Assembly (NCBI RefSeq): GCF_003334785.1
Contig: NZ_QOWV01000032.1
Length of the DNA: 19,881 bases
Reading direction: 5' to 3' (one strand)
Source: Escherichia coli
Lineage (GTDB): Bacteria > Pseudomonadota > Gammaproteobacteria > Enterobacterales > Enterobacteriaceae
The position numbers and the translations under genes are program-made. Below the pieces are notes generated by a model, which did not search any database, was not told the origin of the DNA, and saw only the letters and a list, made by a program, of their open reading frames with translations. Below are positions 8,787 through 16,965 of this stretch, in pieces. The first letter of the stretch is position 1. Every line of letters begins with the position of its first letter.

Positions 8787-9254
8787 ATGACAGCGGCAGA
8801 AAATCACACTGTTCCGGAAATGAATAAAACGGTTGAGCAAATGCTGGCACAAGGACAATGGCAGGATGCGCTTGATTTCTGGATTAATAATACCGATTCG
8901 TTAACATTAATTAAATGGCTGGCACAATTCATTTCTCAGTCCTCTTCTGAAGATGATTCGGTACTTTTACAGTCTATTGTAAAATGGAAGGAAGGCGATG
9001 AGGAACAACGCTGGGAAATATTTAAAAACTCGGAGTCTGCCGGATTTTCCTCTCAGACAGGTGCCCTTGGGTTATCATTATTTGTATCACAGGGAAGTCT
9101 AAGTCCGCCCCCGTATGAACCAGTCCATGCACCGTCATGTTCAGAAAAAAAAATTATATATGGTGTCTTAATGACTCAGTCGTGTAAAGCTCATGATACG
9201 CCGGATGAAGGTGTGTTTTTTCTTTTTCAGCATTGGTGTAATAGTCAACCTTAG
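8787..9254 (+). CDS. hypothetical protein (155 aa) between vgrG and PAAR; candidate spike-associated accessory/adaptor or cargo
   Basis: Good RBS (AAGGA) upstream and tight spacing to vgrG (10 bp) and PAAR (8 bp). Trp-rich N-terminal half (QGQWQDALDFWINNTDSLTLIKWLAQFI) and Cys-containing C-terminus. No family recognised by eye. Contains an A9 tract at 9145-9153. Confidence 0.6.
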   Translation: MTAAENHTVPEMNKTVEQMLAQGQWQDALDFWINNTDSLTLIKWLAQFISQSSSEDDSVLLQSIVKWKEGDEEQRWEIFKNSESAGFSSQTGALGLSLFVSQGSLSPPPYEPVHAPSCSEKKIIYGVLMTQSCKAHDTPDEGVFFLFQHWCNSQP

Positions 9255-9262
9255 GAGGGGAT

Positions 9263-9562
9263 ATGCCTCAACCCGCTGCAAGAGTGACTGATATGCATGT
9301 ATGTCCTATGGTGACGCCAGGTTTGCCACCTGTTCCTCATGTAGGAGGCCCCTTGTTACCACCAGGCTCTCCGTCTGTACTCATTGGGGGATTACCGGCA
9401 GCGACGCTGGGGAACCAGGCACTTTGTACCGGGGCAGTGGACGTCGTCATTATGGGCAGTTTTAAAGTTTTTATATGCGGCAAACCGGCCGCACGGATGG
9501 GCGATAACTGTGCTCATGGGGGGGTAATTGTCAGCGGATATCCTCAGGTATTAGTGGGATAA
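9263..9562 (+). CDS. PAAR-domain spike tip protein (stand-alone, no toxin extension)
   Basis: 99 aa with strong RBS AGGAGG. Three PAAR-type repeats visible: PAARVTD, PAATLGNQALC, PAARMGDNCAHGG. Confidence 0.9.
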   Translation: MPQPAARVTDMHVCPMVTPGLPPVPHVGGPLLPPGSPSVLIGGLPAATLGNQALCTGAVDVVIMGSFKVFICGKPAARMGDNCAHGGVIVSGYPQVLVG

Positions 9563-11219: not shown

Positions 11220-12599
11220 ATGCAAGAAGAAGAGCAACTTGTTTATTGGTATTCAGGGCTTTACTTACAACCTCAGCACTTTCAGTCCATTGATTTGCAT
11301 CATAGTTTCATGCTGGCCAGAACCAGGCAGTTATCACAACCTCATCATCAGGGTTATTATGAATGTCGTATAAATGATGATCTTCTGAAAGAATACACTG
11401 TTAGAATCGAAAAAATAAAAGCAGTGTTATCTTCAGGACATTATATCGAGTATCCGGGTAACTGTGTGGTGCAGGATAAGTGCCTGACAAATCTCCGGGG
11501 TACAGATCCCGGCACCGTAACGTTGTGGCTTGCTCTTAAGCGATTTAATTCCGGACATAAAAATGTATCTGGCATCAATGATAAACGCGGCTCTGCCAGA
11601 TGGGTAAGTTCCGATGATGAAGGCAACATGCGTAATGTGTATCATGACAGTCAGGATGCCGGTATCACAAGAATAAAATATGATATTCAGATCCTTACCG
11701 ATGAGGAAAAAGAGAATACCACAGACTTTGAATACTTACCTCTGACAAGAATTATTCATGACAATAATACATTGTGTATTGATGATGAATATTCATTTCC
11801 TGCAATGAGGTTATCAGCGAACAGCAAACTTAGAGATAAGATCGCAGAGATTCATGCTGATATTCAATTCTACAAAAATAAACTTGAAGAATACCGATAT
11901 ACAGAACGAACAGTGTCCGATGGACATCTTTATAATTTTTTGATCCTGTGTGCTATTAACAGAATATCACCGCTTCTGTCTTCCTTTATTAATGAAGATG
12001 CCATTCACCCATGGTTATATTATATGGCATTGTGTCAGTTTACAGGGGAAATATCGACATTTAAAAATTCTGTATTTTCAGAGGCAAGAATTGTTGATCT
12101 AACATACAATCATTATGAGCAGGTTTCCTGTTTCAGTAATCTTCAGTATTATATTAAAGTAATGCTTGATAATTTATGTAGAGATAAGATTATCGGTGTT
12201 GAATTTAAAAAGATAACAACAGATACCCTGGTCTGTAATTTTGATGAGTACAGTTCCAGAAATAATTCAGATTACTATATTAAATTAACTTCAGAGACCT
12301 TTAAAAAGAATAACTCAATTGCATTGCCCGAGATTAAGATTGCTCCATCTGAACATATAGATCTGATCATTCAGCATGCGCTTCCAGGCATTACTTTTAC
12401 AGTGATGGATGTCGTTACATCTGAGTTACAGGTAAGAGACAATATCATCTGGTTAAAGATCGATAAACATTCAGAGTTATGGAAGTCAGCTCAGGTCCAG
12501 AAAAGGGTTGCATTTTATTGGTCATGTAGCCCTGATGATTTACTGGTAGAGTTAGTATTATCGCAGGAAAAAATATGCAGTAAGCCGTCTTCCGGCTGA
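11220..12599 (+). CDS. tssK: T6SS baseplate protein TssK
   Basis: N-terminus LVYWYSGLYLQPQHFQSIDLH matches the conserved TssK start (VxWxEGMxLxPQHFQQ). ATG 11220 chosen; the ORF track extends to a TTG at 11202 directly after the tssJ stop. Confidence 0.9.
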   Translation: MQEEEQLVYWYSGLYLQPQHFQSIDLHHSFMLARTRQLSQPHHQGYYECRINDDLLKEYTVRIEKIKAVLSSGHYIEYPGNCVVQDKCLTNLRGTDPGTVTLWLALKRFNSGHKNVSGINDKRGSARWVSSDDEGNMRNVYHDSQDAGITRIKYDIQILTDEEKENTTDFEYLPLTRIIHDNNTLCIDDEYSFPAMRLSANSKLRDKIAEIHADIQFYKNKLEEYRYTERTVSDGHLYNFLILCAINRISPLLSSFINEDAIHPWLYYMALCQFTGEISTFKNSVFSEARIVDLTYNHYEQVSCFSNLQYYIKVMLDNLCRDKIIGVEFKKITTDTLVCNFDEYSSRNNSDYYIKLTSETFKKNNSIALPEIKIAPSEHIDLIIQHALPGITFTVMDVVTSELQVRDNIIWLKIDKHSELWKSAQVQKRVAFYWSCSPDDLLVELVLSQEKICSKPSSG

Positions 12600-12936
12600 G
12601 GGGGCGAACCAGACGGCGGATGGCAGAGAAGGGTCCATTCACTGCCAGTGCCTGAAACAGCTTTTTCTCCGTCAGTGGAATCCGGATCTCAGAACAAGAC
12701 CTGTCAGGCGCTACAGGGAAACCTGATGGCAGAACAGAAAATGGCAGAATGTTCGTGAACACGATGAAGGAAGCTGCATCGCGTTCATGCCTGACCATAT
12801 GTAAGCTCTGCAGTGGTTCGGACATTAAGGAGAGACCTCCGCACAGTGCACGGGTATGTTGCTCACCTGGCGAATGTCAGTATCCGTGGGCAGATTTCAG
12901 TTACAGTTTATCGTTTCCGGGGACAAAACATGTTAT
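12600..12936. other. GC-richer, apparently non-coding block interrupting the otherwise tightly packed operon between tssK and tssL
   Basis: Only intergenic gap >12 bp inside the cluster. Base composition is visibly G+C-richer than the flanks. The octamer ATGGCAGA occurs three times (12620, 12726, 12741). Only short or Cys-rich ORFs of doubtful reality. Confidence 0.5.
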
Positions 12937-13554
12937 ATGAATATTTATGTCATGGAGGTACTGGTGAATATTGTTGAATGCTATATGCCAGTATTTAAAC
13001 TCATATCATCTGTTAAAGTCTTTCCAGAAGAATATGGTGATTACGACAGTACCAGAAAGCAGATAATTGATACTGTTGAAGATGTCGTGCGCAATAGTGA
13101 AAAAATATCTTTAAGTGACAGTGAACTGGATGCGGCATTTTATTCAATAGTTGTTATGCTTGATGAGGTTATTTTGTGCTCTGAACTTCCGTACAGAAAA
13201 GAATGGCGCGATAATCTTTTACAGATTAAATATTTTGGACATTCCACTGGCGGTGTTGAGTTTTTTAACATGCTTAATAAAGTCATTGAATCCGGAAGTC
13301 AGGTTGCATGGGTTTTTCTCTTATGTCTCTTACTTGGATTCAGGGGGAAATATTCTGTAAGCAATGATGATGAAATCCTGGATTATATATCAAGACTGAA
13401 AAAACAATGCGGGTTAAATATTCGTGTTGAAGAAAAAAATAAGATCGCATTTAAACAAAAAAAGAATAAATCATCATGGTTTAATTTTTATTTGTCACTT
13501 GCAGGTATCATTATTATTTATTTCGTATTGTTGTTTGTGATATATGTGAGATGA
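12937..13554 (+). CDS. tssL: T6SS membrane protein TssL (DotU-like), short form with C-terminal TM anchor
   Basis: DotU-like cytosolic region followed by a single C-terminal hydrophobic helix (WFNFYLSLAGIIIIYFVLLFVIYV). Start uncertain: in-frame ATGs at 12856, 12937 and 12952; 12937 chosen because 12856-12936 lies in the GC-rich block. Confidence 0.78.
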   Translation: MNIYVMEVLVNIVECYMPVFKLISSVKVFPEEYGDYDSTRKQIIDTVEDVVRNSEKISLSDSELDAAFYSIVVMLDEVILCSELPYRKEWRDNLLQIKYFGHSTGGVEFFNMLNKVIESGSQVAWVFLLCLLLGFRGKYSVSNDDEILDYISRLKKQCGLNIRVEEKNKIAFKQKKNKSSWFNFYLSLAGIIIIYFVLLFVIYVR

Positions 13555-13560
13555 TCTCTT

Positions 13561-16500
13561 ATGCTTAAGAAGATATTTTCATTGTTTCTCTGGATTTTTG
13601 TGTCTGTTTTCGTTTTATCTGTTTGTTATGTCATTGGCGTGTTCAGAAACTGGACAGATACTACAACTGTATTTTACTGGATTTTTGTAATTCTGGTTAC
13701 ACTCACCCTGAAATTGATTGTGGATTGTATCCATAATTACTTTTCGTCAGGTAAATACAGAAAGCTGGTGAGGTTATTTTCCAGGAAAAAAAGAACAATA
13801 ACACTTGATTCATACTTCAGGAAAGGAATGAATATCATAAGTAAAAAAGGAAGAGGCGTGGTCCCCTGGTTTTTACTTACGGGGGATTCAGAAAAAAACG
13901 CTTCCCTGCTTAAGGATATTAATCTTCCCGTCTTTCACAGTAATGAGTTAAATGGTATTTCTCAACAATTCAGAACAATTCGTTGGTGGTTTTTCAGGGA
14001 TTCAAGTGTACTGGAGTTGTCAGGTAAGATATATGACAACCCGGGGGTGCTGAACTCTGTGATAGGTTTTTTATCAGCACGTAACTCTAAAAAACAACCA
14101 CCTCATGGCATTGTTCTGGTTATTCCTGTTGAAACGTTACTTGATCATGATTACTCCTGTATTCAGGTGTTATCTCAAAAAACAAGAAATTTTACAGAAC
14201 AACTGTCGTCACACTTACATCATAATATCCCAGTTTTTCTGGTTATAAGTGGATGCGAGCACATCAGTGGGTATTCATCGCTGGCACAAAAAATTCATCA
14301 AAAAAATAACAATGGGTATCCGGTATTTTGGGCAACCAATAAATCAGACACAAATGCATCTGAATATGACTCATCATATATATTGTCATCATTAAAATCT
14401 AATATTACGATAGAAATATGTCATGTACTTGATGATACATTGAGTGACCAGGAAAAAAACGAGATCCTGTTGTTTCCGGATAAATTGAATGATCTAAAAC
14501 ATTCACTGGATGTGTTTATTTCAACATTCAGTATCGATAACGTGTTTTTTTCTCAGACAGAAGTCTCCGGGGTCTGTTTATCTGGTGAACTCGTTTCGGG
14601 TAAGGATAAAAATTGTACTTTTTCTGATGTTTTAGTTTCTGAGATCCTACCACAAATACAGAACTCAGAAGTTATTCACGTTAATAAACGAAGAATAAAA
14701 ATGTCATTCAGATCCGTTATGGTTATGACGGCGCTGTGCTTTATTGGATATAGTGCATATTGTTCATATCATATATATGATGTCAGGCAAGGTTCTGTGG
14801 AGATCAGCCCTGCATTCCTGACTGAGCAAATATTAAAATATGAAGATAAAGTCAGATCTAATATACTTTATTTACCTTTTAAACCGGCATTGAATGATAA
14901 ATATTTATTTTTCAGAGAGTCTCTTTATAACAGTAGCAGATTCGAGACCCGTCCTGTTTCATGGCGCGTTGATGAATATAAGAAAAAATTCCTTGCGGCT
15001 TCCCCATCAGGAAAGCGTGAATTGATTCTGTCGCTTGCCTCATCGCTTATCGGTTGGGATAAGATGGTTAAGGATGAATCACTGCTTGATTTAACAACAT
15101 TTCCGGGTATTCATGAATCAATAAAAATAACCAGACCTTATGATAAAATATCATCAATAGCTTCACTGGCTTTAGAAAGAGATGAGATACAAAAAAATCA
15201 TGGAAGTGAAAATATTGATGTGTTCAGAAAACTCCTTAGCGAGTTTATTCAGAGTGATCCATCTTATTCATGGTTTGTTTCTGAATATGTTGATATTCCG
15301 GCCGTAAAAGTTACGGATTTCTGGGAAGATGAAAACGCATCTGTCAGTCTGTCTGGTATATGGACTCAGGAGGGACAGAATAAACTTCATCACTGGTATG
15401 AGAATATCAAAGAGGCATATGGACGTGATACGGTTCCGGAAGCGTTTTCATCTTTTGTGCAGTACCTGGAAGAAAGTCGTCAGGAGCATTTCAGACAGTT
15501 CATCATGGCTGTCGCAAGGGAGCGTAAAGATTCACATTCAGGGTTAATGAGTCCGCTGCAGTTGACAGATATCATACAAAATCGTTCATCTGAGCATAAA
15601 TTCTTTAAGTTTGTTGATGATGAATTACATAATATCCCGGCAAGTTCAGCGCAGGACTGGCTTTCTGATTTCAGGCTGCTTTATCGTCTGTTTTCTCTTA
15701 AAGTGGATAACGGAATGAAGCGTCAGATAGAGCAGTTTGACATCATGGTACGTATATATCTGATGTCTGTTTTTAATAACAGTCAGATGAACAGGACAAC
15801 GGCTCATGTAACAGCATGGAGAGACTGGCAGAATGTGCTACGTAATGCCGTAAATTCAGAGTTACATACAGCATCATCCGTTGAACTGATCCGTAATGCT
15901 ATGCGTTCAGACCCAAAAAACAAGCTGGTAATATTATTTGATGAATTTGAAAAGGTTCGTTCAGTGATTAACAGTAATAATACAGATCCAGTGATTGATT
16001 CTGTATGGGATATTTATGAACGGCAAAATTATAAACTTCTCGACCATGCAGTCACGTATACGGGGTGCAGGGTTGATGAACAATGGAGAAATTCTGTTTT
16101 AAGCCAGTTAAATTCAGATAAACACAATTCCAGTCATTCTGAAATGCAGGGTAAAATATATAAAAACATTATTGGTTTTTTAAATGGATCCGCTAACGGT
16201 GTTTTAGCACTTGATGCCGAAGGTGCCAGAGTATTGTCGTTCAGGGAAAGAAGTATACCGTTTACGCCTTCATTCATTAGTTTTCTCAATGACGTTGTTT
16301 CTCCGGATGATTTGCTTGACGTTCAGCTCAGAGACCGAACGCAAAACAAGGATGAGCTGATAAATGTACAGGGACAATTAGACGTACTGAATCAGACCCT
16401 GCAAAAGATTGAATCACAGCCTTACAAAATGACGGTAAGTAGTGCACCTGCGACGATTTCAGGTCATCATGGCGTTAAACCAACAGGTACAACTCTGACT

Positions 16501-16965
16501 CTTGAGTGCAAAACAGGTAACAGCAGTATAAGAAGCATGAATTTTGCCGATTCAGGTCTTTTTACCTGGTATCCAGGAAGTTGTCATTCTGTCAGCATTG
16601 ATATTTCGTTCCCTGACTTTTCCACCACCTATAAATTCACAGGTGAAACAGCCTGGATTGATTTTATCAACAAGTTTTCGGATGGAGAGGATGAGTTAAT
16701 GACAAAGGACTTTTCTCCGGAATCAAGAAGTTTTCTTGAATCAATGGGTATAAAAAGTATCCTCGTCCGTTACAAACTGAGTGATACCGGCGATCTCAGT
16801 CAGGCATATATCGAATGGGAACAGTTAAAACAGGAAAAGGATAAACTTGAAAATTTGCAGATTAGTCTGAGTAATAAACTGCTTACCACTCATAGCTGGG
16901 AGAAAAGTGGCTGGATTTCCAGATTGCCTGGCAAAATAACAATATGTCCGGCAGTACAGGAGTGA
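13561..16965 (+). CDS. tssM: T6SS membrane complex protein TssM (IcmF-like) with degenerate Walker A
   Basis: 1134 aa. Two N-terminal TM helices, cytoplasmic domain, third TM (MSFRSVMVMTALCFIGYSAYC), large C-terminal periplasmic region. Where canonical TssM has PWYL..G.PG.GK[ST], this one reads VPWFLLTGDSEKNAS. Confidence 0.95.
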   Translation: MLKKIFSLFLWIFVSVFVLSVCYVIGVFRNWTDTTTVFYWIFVILVTLTLKLIVDCIHNYFSSGKYRKLVRLFSRKKRTITLDSYFRKGMNIISKKGRGVVPWFLLTGDSEKNASLLKDINLPVFHSNELNGISQQFRTIRWWFFRDSSVLELSGKIYDNPGVLNSVIGFLSARNSKKQPPHGIVLVIPVETLLDHDYSCIQVLSQKTRNFTEQLSSHLHHNIPVFLVISGCEHISGYSSLAQKIHQKNNNGYPVFWATNKSDTNASEYDSSYILSSLKSNITIEICHVLDDTLSDQEKNEILLFPDKLNDLKHSLDVFISTFSIDNVFFSQTEVSGVCLSGELVSGKDKNCTFSDVLVSEILPQIQNSEVIHVNKRRIKMSFRSVMVMTALCFIGYSAYCSYHIYDVRQGSVEISPAFLTEQILKYEDKVRSNILYLPFKPALNDKYLFFRESLYNSSRFETRPVSWRVDEYKKKFLAASPSGKRELILSLASSLIGWDKMVKDESLLDLTTFPGIHESIKITRPYDKISSIASLALERDEIQKNHGSENIDVFRKLLSEFIQSDPSYSWFVSEYVDIPAVKVTDFWEDENASVSLSGIWTQEGQNKLHHWYENIKEAYGRDTVPEAFSSFVQYLEESRQEHFRQFIMAVARERKDSHSGLMSPLQLTDIIQNRSSEHKFFKFVDDELHNIPASSAQDWLSDFRLLYRLFSLKVDNGMKRQIEQFDIMVRIYLMSVFNNSQMNRTTAHVTAWRDWQNVLRNAVNSELHTASSVELIRNAMRSDPKNKLVILFDEFEKVRSVINSNNTDPVIDSVWDIYERQNYKLLDHAVTYTGCRVDEQWRNSVLSQLNSDKHNSSHSEMQGKIYKNIIGFLNGSANGVLALDAEGARVLSFRERSIPFTPSFISFLNDVVSPDDLLDVQLRDRTQNKDELINVQGQLDVLNQTLQKIESQPYKMTVSSAPATISGHHGVKPTGTTLTLECKTGNSSIRSMNFADSGLFTWYPGSCHSVSIDISFPDFSTTYKFTGETAWIDFINKFSDGEDELMTKDFSPESRSFLESMGIKSILVRYKLSDTGDLSQAYIEWEQLKQEKDKLENLQISLSNKLLTTHSWEKSGWISRLPGKITICPAVQE

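Follow-up and report, generated by a model that had tools for sequence, protein, structure and literature searches.

The block that separates tssK from tssL in a plasmid-borne type VI secretion (T6SS) cluster of Escherichia coli (about 12581–12930) is very probably the decayed, non-autonomous fossil of an IS2-like insertion sequence (IS) of the IS3 family, left by an old insertion between the two genes. The closest living relative found for the fossil is ISEc48. We established homology to and collinearity with this element, a right junction shared by all lineages, an empty site in the outgroup and the loss of coding capacity. All positions refer to the stretch of 19,881 nucleotides that was analyzed (contig NZ_QOWV01000032.1), here called the window.

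The window is 99.98% identical to pWP7-S17-ESBL-04_2 and contains the genes of the cluster in the order tssB-tssC-hcp-tssE-tssF-tssG-vgrG-DUF6931-PAAR-tssA-tssJ-tssK-[gap]-tssL-tssM-tssH. The gap is 337 bp long when measured to the annotated ATG of tssL at 12937 and 364 bp to the likelier GTG at 12964. An earlier note on this DNA had pointed to it as the only long gap in the cluster, which is correct: the other junctions overlap or reach up to 18 bp in both the ORF list and the RefSeq annotation. In the literature, nothing specific was found on this plasmid T6SS or on the tssK–tssL spacer.

Some features of the wider region also deserve mention. The window and NZ_AP022179 (99.98% identical) differ by two mismatches and two gaps over 19.9 kb. 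The tssM gene is an intact ORF of 1,134 codons in the window (13561–16965) and is annotated as frameshifted in NZ_AP022179 (14972–18377), which could be a sequencing error or a real inactivation. IS debris brackets the T6SS island on both sides (window 1–150 and 19795–19881; NZ_AP022179 436–1559 and 26288–26374). A truncated IS100/IS21-family element lies directly upstream of the island in the parent plasmid, and the last 87 nt of the window recur in inverted orientation ∼5 kb downstream, amid IS3-family fragments.

The block stands out by its base composition, as had been claimed from the letters alone. The G+C content is 53.0% for 12584–12930 and 51.6% for 12600–12936. The average of the window is 39.8%, and the flanking 347-nt stretches of tssK and tssL have 35.4% each. 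Only 0.04% of all 347-nt segments reach the value of the block, and the maximum of the window (0.533) begins at 12576. The high value is explained by the source of the DNA, since an IS of ∼50% G+C (ISEc48 49%, relic 53%) lies inside an island of ∼38% G+C (T6SS 40%). The only other stretches of at least 50% G+C in the window, 9154–9400 (PAAR gene and start of tssA) and 17568–17976 (tssH/clpV), lie within coding genes and therefore reflect gene composition and not insertions. On the mRNA strand the block has a GC skew of +0.11 to +0.18, and such an excess of G over C is unlike Rho-utilization sites.

When compared by megablast with 5,426 complete genomes of E. coli, the block was found in 22 of them, always between tssK and tssL and never with an annotation. 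It occupies a median of one place per genome and at most two, the latter where a later IS splits the block. As it is confined to the T6SS locus and typically occurs once per genome, the block does not qualify as a dispersed repeat, and in this it differs from REP/BIME, ERIC and box elements. A more sensitive blastn search of 72,556 plasmids returned 360 records; those outside the T6SS locus match only query positions 145–220 (about 12740–12815 in the window) and sit in IS3-family elements or in unannotated DNA. In hundreds of plasmids, the segment 12740–12805 matches the 3′ part of IS3-family transposase genes (ISEc48, ‘IS2 ORF2’) with 84–91% identity and on the same strand.

As reference we used one complete copy of ISEc48 (about 1,337 bp, 49% G+C), and its right terminus (...GGGGGCAAGAACA) was set by the position where 2,288 E. 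coli records cease to match. The OrfB protein of this element is an IS2-type IS3-family transposase according to NF006918 (E = 1.6e-116) and NF033516 (200 bits vs. a cutoff of 160). We also observed that the complete copy in the chromosome of E. coli 3R is flanked on both sides by the 16-nt sequence AGCACAACGATGCACT (207–223 and 1561–1576), which far exceeds the short target duplications expected of IS3-family elements. Searches with blastn aligned ISEc48 to the relic of the M8 plasmid with 68.6% identity over 331 nt (E = 4.5e-36), to the NMBU-W12E19 relic (E = 3e-29) and to the window copy at 12740–12903 (E = 4e-14), with 85.5% identity for 12740–12805 (E = 7e-16). Smith-Waterman alignment extends the homology in the window leftwards to 12609 (z = 5.9 vs. 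shuffles for 12609–12735, z = 0.5 for the reverse strand). A semi-global alignment shows collinearity of the block with the final ∼351 nt of ISEc48 (70% identity, 311 aligned pairs), from about codon 168 of orfB to the right inverted repeat (IRR), and the block reaches the tip of the IS, ending ...GGGGACAAAACA at 12930. To judge from the alignments, the block belongs to the class of relics by its collinear nucleotide homology to a true IS3-family element up to the terminus. The earlier suggestion that foreign sequence was inserted here, as a scar left by a decayed gene or a mobile element, was in this respect correct, as shown both by the ISEc48 homology and by a Yersinia cluster that lacks the block.

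Little is left of the transposase at the protein level. Fragments found by tblastn in the window are collinear with OrfB residues 212–218 and 245–259 and are sub-significant; in the 63-aa ORF of the block, FVNTMKE aligns to FVKTMKE and PPHSARVCCSPGE to HPHSALGYRSPRE. The window copy taken alone gave no significant protein-level match, either by tblastn with OrfA and OrfB or by Pfam and NCBIfam searches with the 63-aa ORF, and the case therefore rests on the DNA homology and on better preserved sister copies. Active IS3-family elements of the IS2 group carry overlapping orfA and orfB, from which a programmed −1 frameshift yields the OrfAB transposase. No orfA signal was obtained in the window by tblastn, and orfB codons ∼168–265 are recognizable only at the DNA level. 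The DDE (rve) domain is not intact, as only the region around the third catalytic residue (NGMAE) is left, and this is frame-broken. The parts of the relic are listed in Table 1, together with the neighboring genes and the variability of each segment.

Table 1. Features of the tssK–tssL region and variability of the segments of the relic; divergence is the pairwise mean, and p-values are relative to 4-fold sites of the flanking genes.
Feature	Position	Strand	Description	Divergence	Variable columns	p
tssK (baseplate subunit)	11220–12599	+	RefSeq annotation of near-identical plasmid; 61% identical to Yersinia TssK			
Relic left junction	12581–12608	+	Possible IRL-tip trace (TAAGCCGTCTTC vs. ISEc48 TGAGCTGGCCCCC), then internal deletion point; weak positional match			
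Decayed 3′ part of orfB	12609–12895	+	ISEc48 OrfB codons about 168–265; indels break the frame			
Local 15-nt repeat ATGGCAGAACAGAAA / ATGGCAGAATGTTCG	12726–12755	+	orfB ‘MAE’ codons			
63-aa ORF	12749–12940	+	Chance open frame through wrecked transposase C-terminus (FVNTMKE / PPHSARVCCSPGE)			
GTT target site of second IS3-family element in sister plasmids	12816–12818	+				
Right inverted repeat (IRR)	12896–12930	+	Ends ...CCGGGGACAAAACA-3′; aligns to ISEc48 end ...AGGGGGCAAGAACA			
Surviving native AT-rich spacer	12931–12963	+	30% G+C; homologous to Yersinia spacer end ...caGGAGGTagtaGTG			
tssL (DotU family)	12964–13554	+	Likely start GTG 12964; RefSeq start ATG 12937			
Segment A, left junction	12584–12608			0.30	60%	0.27
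Segment B, orfB	12609–12739			0.165	33%	0.053
Segment C, orfB	12740–12815			0.09	21%	7e-4
Segment D, orfB	12816–12895			0.21	42%	0.55
Segment E, inverted repeat	12896–12930			0.06	14%	6e-4
4-fold sites, flanking genes				0.24–0.29	46.5%	

The decayed orfB part includes the ...NGMAERFVKTMKE... region and the ...HPHSALGYRSPREY motif. The right end of the relic is present (...AAAACA at 12930), and the left end is a doubtful trace at 12581–12600. No pair of inverted repeats was detected in 12500–13000. A target-site duplication could not be recognized either, as the flanks TGCAG (left) and TGTTA (right) differ; it may have been erased by decay or by a deletion of the left end.

The alignment to orfB also accounts for the octamer ATGGCAGA, whose three copies on the + strand of the block (12620, 12726, and 12741) had been pointed out before. 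The whole window holds four copies vs. 0.66 expected, a number reached in 1 of 200 shuffles. The second and third copies arise from the 15-nt repeat, and the ‘MAE’ codons concerned are single in both ISEc48 and the Salmonella Newport relic, while the first copy aligns to decayed ‘QWLTDNG’ codons of orfB. None of the ORFs that cross the block is long or conserved. The Cys-rich 63-aa ORF had rightly been called unconvincing: it contains a stop codon in the NMBU-W12E19 relative, has no match in Pfam or NCBIfam, and represents the decayed C-terminus of the transposase.

The gap is occupied in 50 of the 50 E. coli and Salmonella plasmid records found with this T6SS. Every lineage has the same right junction (...ACAAAACA/TGTTATATGAAT), which points to one ancestral event. 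Some sister plasmids have kept parts that the window has lost. pCFSAN004178P_02 retains a fragment of orfA (tblastn E = 2.6e-10) and the C-terminus of orfB (E = 1e-5), RHB38 has a recognizable IRL (76% identity to ISEc48 219–268) that starts at the tssK stop codon, and M8 keeps 14 nt of orfB that are absent from the window. The left part of the window copy has no similarity to the left remnants of pCFSAN004178P_02, and each lineage has therefore kept different pieces.

Two outgroup clusters, examined in a comparison of the kind that the earlier note had proposed, have tssK and tssL side by side. A plasmid of Yersinia enterocolitica has the same tssA-J-K-L-M order and a tssK–tssL spacer of 71 bp with 21% G+C. 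Nucleotide similarity between Yersinia and the window restarts just past the IS tip, at about 12942, and at the sequence level the Yersinia spacer looks like the empty site. The tssK–tssL gap of a distant E. coli plasmid T6SS is 34 bp. As the two genes are adjacent in both outgroups, adjacency is therefore ancestral and the block is an insertion.

These observations can be combined into a simple scenario. The IS very probably entered the short AT-rich tssK–tssL spacer of a plasmid-borne T6SS, reading in the direction of the operon, at a time when the E. coli and Salmonella plasmid lineages that now carry the cluster had not yet split. Later deletions in the lineage of the window then took orfA and the first ∼60% of orfB. 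The remainder, i.e., the last ∼350 nt with the 3′ end of orfB and the right inverted repeat, has since gathered substitutions and frame-breaking indels.

The insertion has left its mark on the end of tssK. Homology of TssK to the Yersinia protein stops at ...VELV, and the final codons (about 12581–12599, encoding ...ICSKPSSG before the stop) come from the inserted sequence. A run of A residues at 12568–12573 has six copies in the window, NMBU-W12E19, pFII-FIB and L014, and seven in M8 and p2-S1-CAM-01-A. The length of the run shifts the frame of tssK, which ends either in ...QEKNMQ (stop 12581–12583) or in ...QEKICSKPSSG (stop 12597–12599), and the run has the look of a site prone to slippage, from which two different C-termini result. 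Five lineages have zero substitutions among them in the final 38 nt of tssK (12546–12583), with the length of the A-run as the only difference, while the same lineages differ by about 24–29% at 4-fold sites. This may reflect either a recombination tract or a constraint on the 3′ end of tssK and the IS left junction.

On the other side of the relic, a Shine-Dalgarno sequence (GGAGGT, 12954–12959) is followed 4 nt later by GTG 12964. The Yersinia tssL ortholog is annotated from the equivalent GTG, and it is from residue 10 of the annotated TssL onward that the protein resembles distant DotU proteins. An in-frame ATG at 12952 is lost in pFII-FIB, and GTG 12964 is TTG in L014. From these sequence features, the true start of tssL is probably GTG 12964, which would put the RefSeq start at ATG 12937 27 nt too far upstream. 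We infer that tssL is translated from its own conserved GGAGGT-GTG start and not by coupling to tssK.

Indels of 1, 2, 4, and 14 nt distinguish the relics of the different lineages, and the relic has diverged more than the flanking coding sequence. Judged by these frame-breaking indels and by this divergence, the relic is non-coding. The flanking genes are under purifying selection, with amino-acid divergence of 0.06–0.15 vs. 0.16–0.28 at 4-fold sites, and the cluster was thus evidently preserved while carrying the fossil. Variability is unevenly distributed along the relic, which has 32.7% variable columns overall vs. 46.5% at 4-fold sites (p = 0.013). The left junction (12581–12608) is the most diverged segment, with a mean pairwise divergence of 0.30, and the IRR is the least variable part (5 of 35 columns). 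The low variability of 12740–12815 and of the IRR counts against fully neutral junk. We regard it as a weak hint of constraint in the sequence, because the segments are short, local rate variation is large, and rate heterogeneity or recombination is evident. Indels are tolerated inside 12740–12815, with 4-nt and 14-nt ones in M8-type lineages, and the inverted repeat is much less conserved in RHB38, the deepest lineage.

The block was also searched for regulatory and RNA signals. No sigma-70-like site was found on either strand in 12400–13100 (0 vs. 1.9 expected). A search for the sigma-54 pattern, prompted by the TGGCA in the octamer, gave no site in the block with two or fewer mismatches, and there was no enrichment window-wide (86 matches vs. 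79 expected). The internal promoter that had been suggested for this region is not borne out by these searches. No intrinsic terminator was found on the + strand of the block, and one weak terminator-like hairpin lies on the minus strand (12717–12700). In Rfam, searched with a permissive E-value, the sole match was mir-16 with 17.4 bits vs. a gathering score of 36.5 (E = 1.1), i.e., a chance match, and a scan of the block for tRNA and tmRNA found none. The fold of the single sequence is unremarkable (z = −1.96). Alifold analysis of five lineages gave a negligible covariation term (−1.4), with 34 of 116 consensus pairs broken in at least one lineage.

Promoters at the ends of IS elements deserve separate mention. 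IS2-type ends that abut in a minicircle form a junction promoter, Pjunc (PMC3299598). The relic resembles such IS-derived promoters in that its IS2-type right end faces the start codon of tssL from a distance of 33 nt upstream. With the IS2 bases that form the −35 of Pjunc placed by our own reconstruction, the relic shows TCGTT at the site of TGGAAA in the right end of ISEc48 (alignment by eye). The −35-equivalent of the relic is in our reading degraded, and it differs further from Pjunc by having no −10 at a workable distance. A Pjunc-like hybrid promoter at the tip of the inverted repeat was accordingly rejected, both for the −35-equivalent so reconstructed and for a transcription start that would hit or pass the tssL ribosome-binding site.

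Could the fragment have been put to use? It might be an exapted piece of an IS, with 12740–12815 and/or the IRR plus the 33-nt spacer acting as a cis-regulatory element for tssL-tssM-tssH, e.g., as a weak or regulated internal promoter, an element for mRNA processing or stability, a context for translation initiation, or a binding site for OrfA/OrfAB of a resident IS2-like element. The two slow segments, which vary 2–3 times less than 4-fold sites, fit with such a role, as does the retention of the relic in all 50 plasmid records at up to ∼23% amino-acid divergence of TssL, and IS2-type ends do contribute to Pjunc when abutting in the minicircle (PMC3299598). We nevertheless consider exaptation unlikely. 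The promoter searches described above were negative for sigma-70 and sigma-54, the −35-equivalent as we reconstructed it by eye is degraded, and transcription from a promoter at the tip of the IS would begin no earlier than the ribosome-binding site of tssL. There is likewise no covariation to indicate an RNA structure, the RHB38 repeat and the M8-type indels speak against constraint, and the test on these short segments was partly post hoc. It is similarly doubtful that the slow pieces have been domesticated as a control point that uncouples tssL-tssM-tssH from the upstream sheath and baseplate genes, via OrfA/OrfAB or an mRNA element.

A small RNA with a regulatory role, or a structured leader, encoded on one or the other strand would account for a long untranslated G+C-rich stretch, for the marginal fold z-score and for the weak minus-strand hairpin. 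A small RNA had also been among the earlier suggestions. The Rfam match was nowhere near the gathering score, however, no tRNA or tmRNA is present, about 30% of the consensus pairs are broken in at least one of the five lineages with negligible covariation, and promoter-like sites are absent on both strands, which together make this very improbable. Even less credible is a native origin, in which a T6SS accessory gene, or a longer version of tssK or tssL, would have decayed on the spot. The position inside the operon and the short broken ORFs on the + strand are what such a remnant might look like, but the sequence is homologous to the transposase DNA of the IS3 family and to the terminal repeat of an IS, the composition fits the IS and not the island, and in both outgroups tssK and tssL are neighbors without an intervening gene. 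The native-gene explanation is in effect refuted. The IS fossil is now probably a passive intercistronic spacer that is transcribed through. It would have been tolerated because it carries no + strand terminator.

The relic has itself been hit by other IS elements. pJKHS016_1 contains a full IS3-family element (4230–7802) that carries a group II intron (ltrA) and is flanked by a GTT duplication, and p2-S1-CAM-01-A (1121–1155) has a 32-bp footprint of the same element together with the GTT duplication. In p1_ST866 (about 1520–3992), what looks by eye like an IS911-like end is found at the equivalent of about 12786 in the window, and an IS30 is also present. The tssK–tssL gap of pCFSAN004178P_02 is enlarged to 2 kb (2198–4227): besides remnants of an ISEc48-like orfA and of the C-terminal part of orfB, it contains the left end of an IS2 and an IS110-family transposase with a frameshift, none of which appear in the PLSDB gene table. 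Other IS3-family debris was seen in the RHB11 and RHB38 plasmids. This amounts to at least three to five apparently independent secondary IS events among about 50 plasmids, and the fossil may thus also act as a ‘safe’ landing pad for further insertions.

The relic shares features with several known kinds of elements. Like ISEc48 and IS2, it has the NGMAERFVKTMKE and HPHSALGYRSPREY coding regions and an IRR ending in CA-3′, collinear with the last ∼350 nt of the element; it has a similar G+C content and lies on the same strand as orfB. Unlike ISEc48, to which it is ∼70% identical, it has lost orfA, the frameshift site and the greater part of the DDE domain, which amounts to about 74% of the element; its frames are broken, it has no usable left end, it is single-copy, and it cannot transpose. 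The block is a fossil and not a member of any active IS. A comparable case is the ‘IS2 ORF2’ fragment that precedes ospE2 on virulence plasmids of Shigella, which is likewise a truncated 3′ part of orfB in an intergenic region and matches 52 nt of the block (12740–12791, query 145–196) at 89–91%. The Shigella fragment lies at another locus and represents an independent event. One record annotates it, whereas none of the records examined has an annotation for the T6SS fossil.

A miniature mobile element (MITE) or an internally deleted IS would also be short, non-coding and IS-derived, and the left junction of the block may retain a few IRL bases. The block differs from a MITE by having no matching pair of inverted repeats, no recognizable target duplication and one copy per replicon, and by its truncated 5′ end. 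The idea of a miniature mobile element, also raised in the earlier note, did not hold up on these grounds, and there is no sign that the block was ever mobilized in its present form.

The fossil is thus an ordinary IS relic, a new instance of a very well known kind that holds nothing surprising for a specialist. It explains both the compositional anomaly and the unusual 340-bp gap in a T6SS operon whose genes are otherwise closely packed, and it draws attention to an IS remnant without annotation in about 50 public plasmid records. If the slow pieces had indeed been domesticated, this would tie the output of the plasmid T6SS to the IS-element activity of the host. The repeated IS hits illustrate how a dead IS can turn into a tolerated landing pad inside an operon. 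Finally, the shared fossil is a phylogenetic marker, according to which the T6SS copies on E. coli and Salmonella plasmids share an insertion-bearing ancestor that the Yersinia copy does not.
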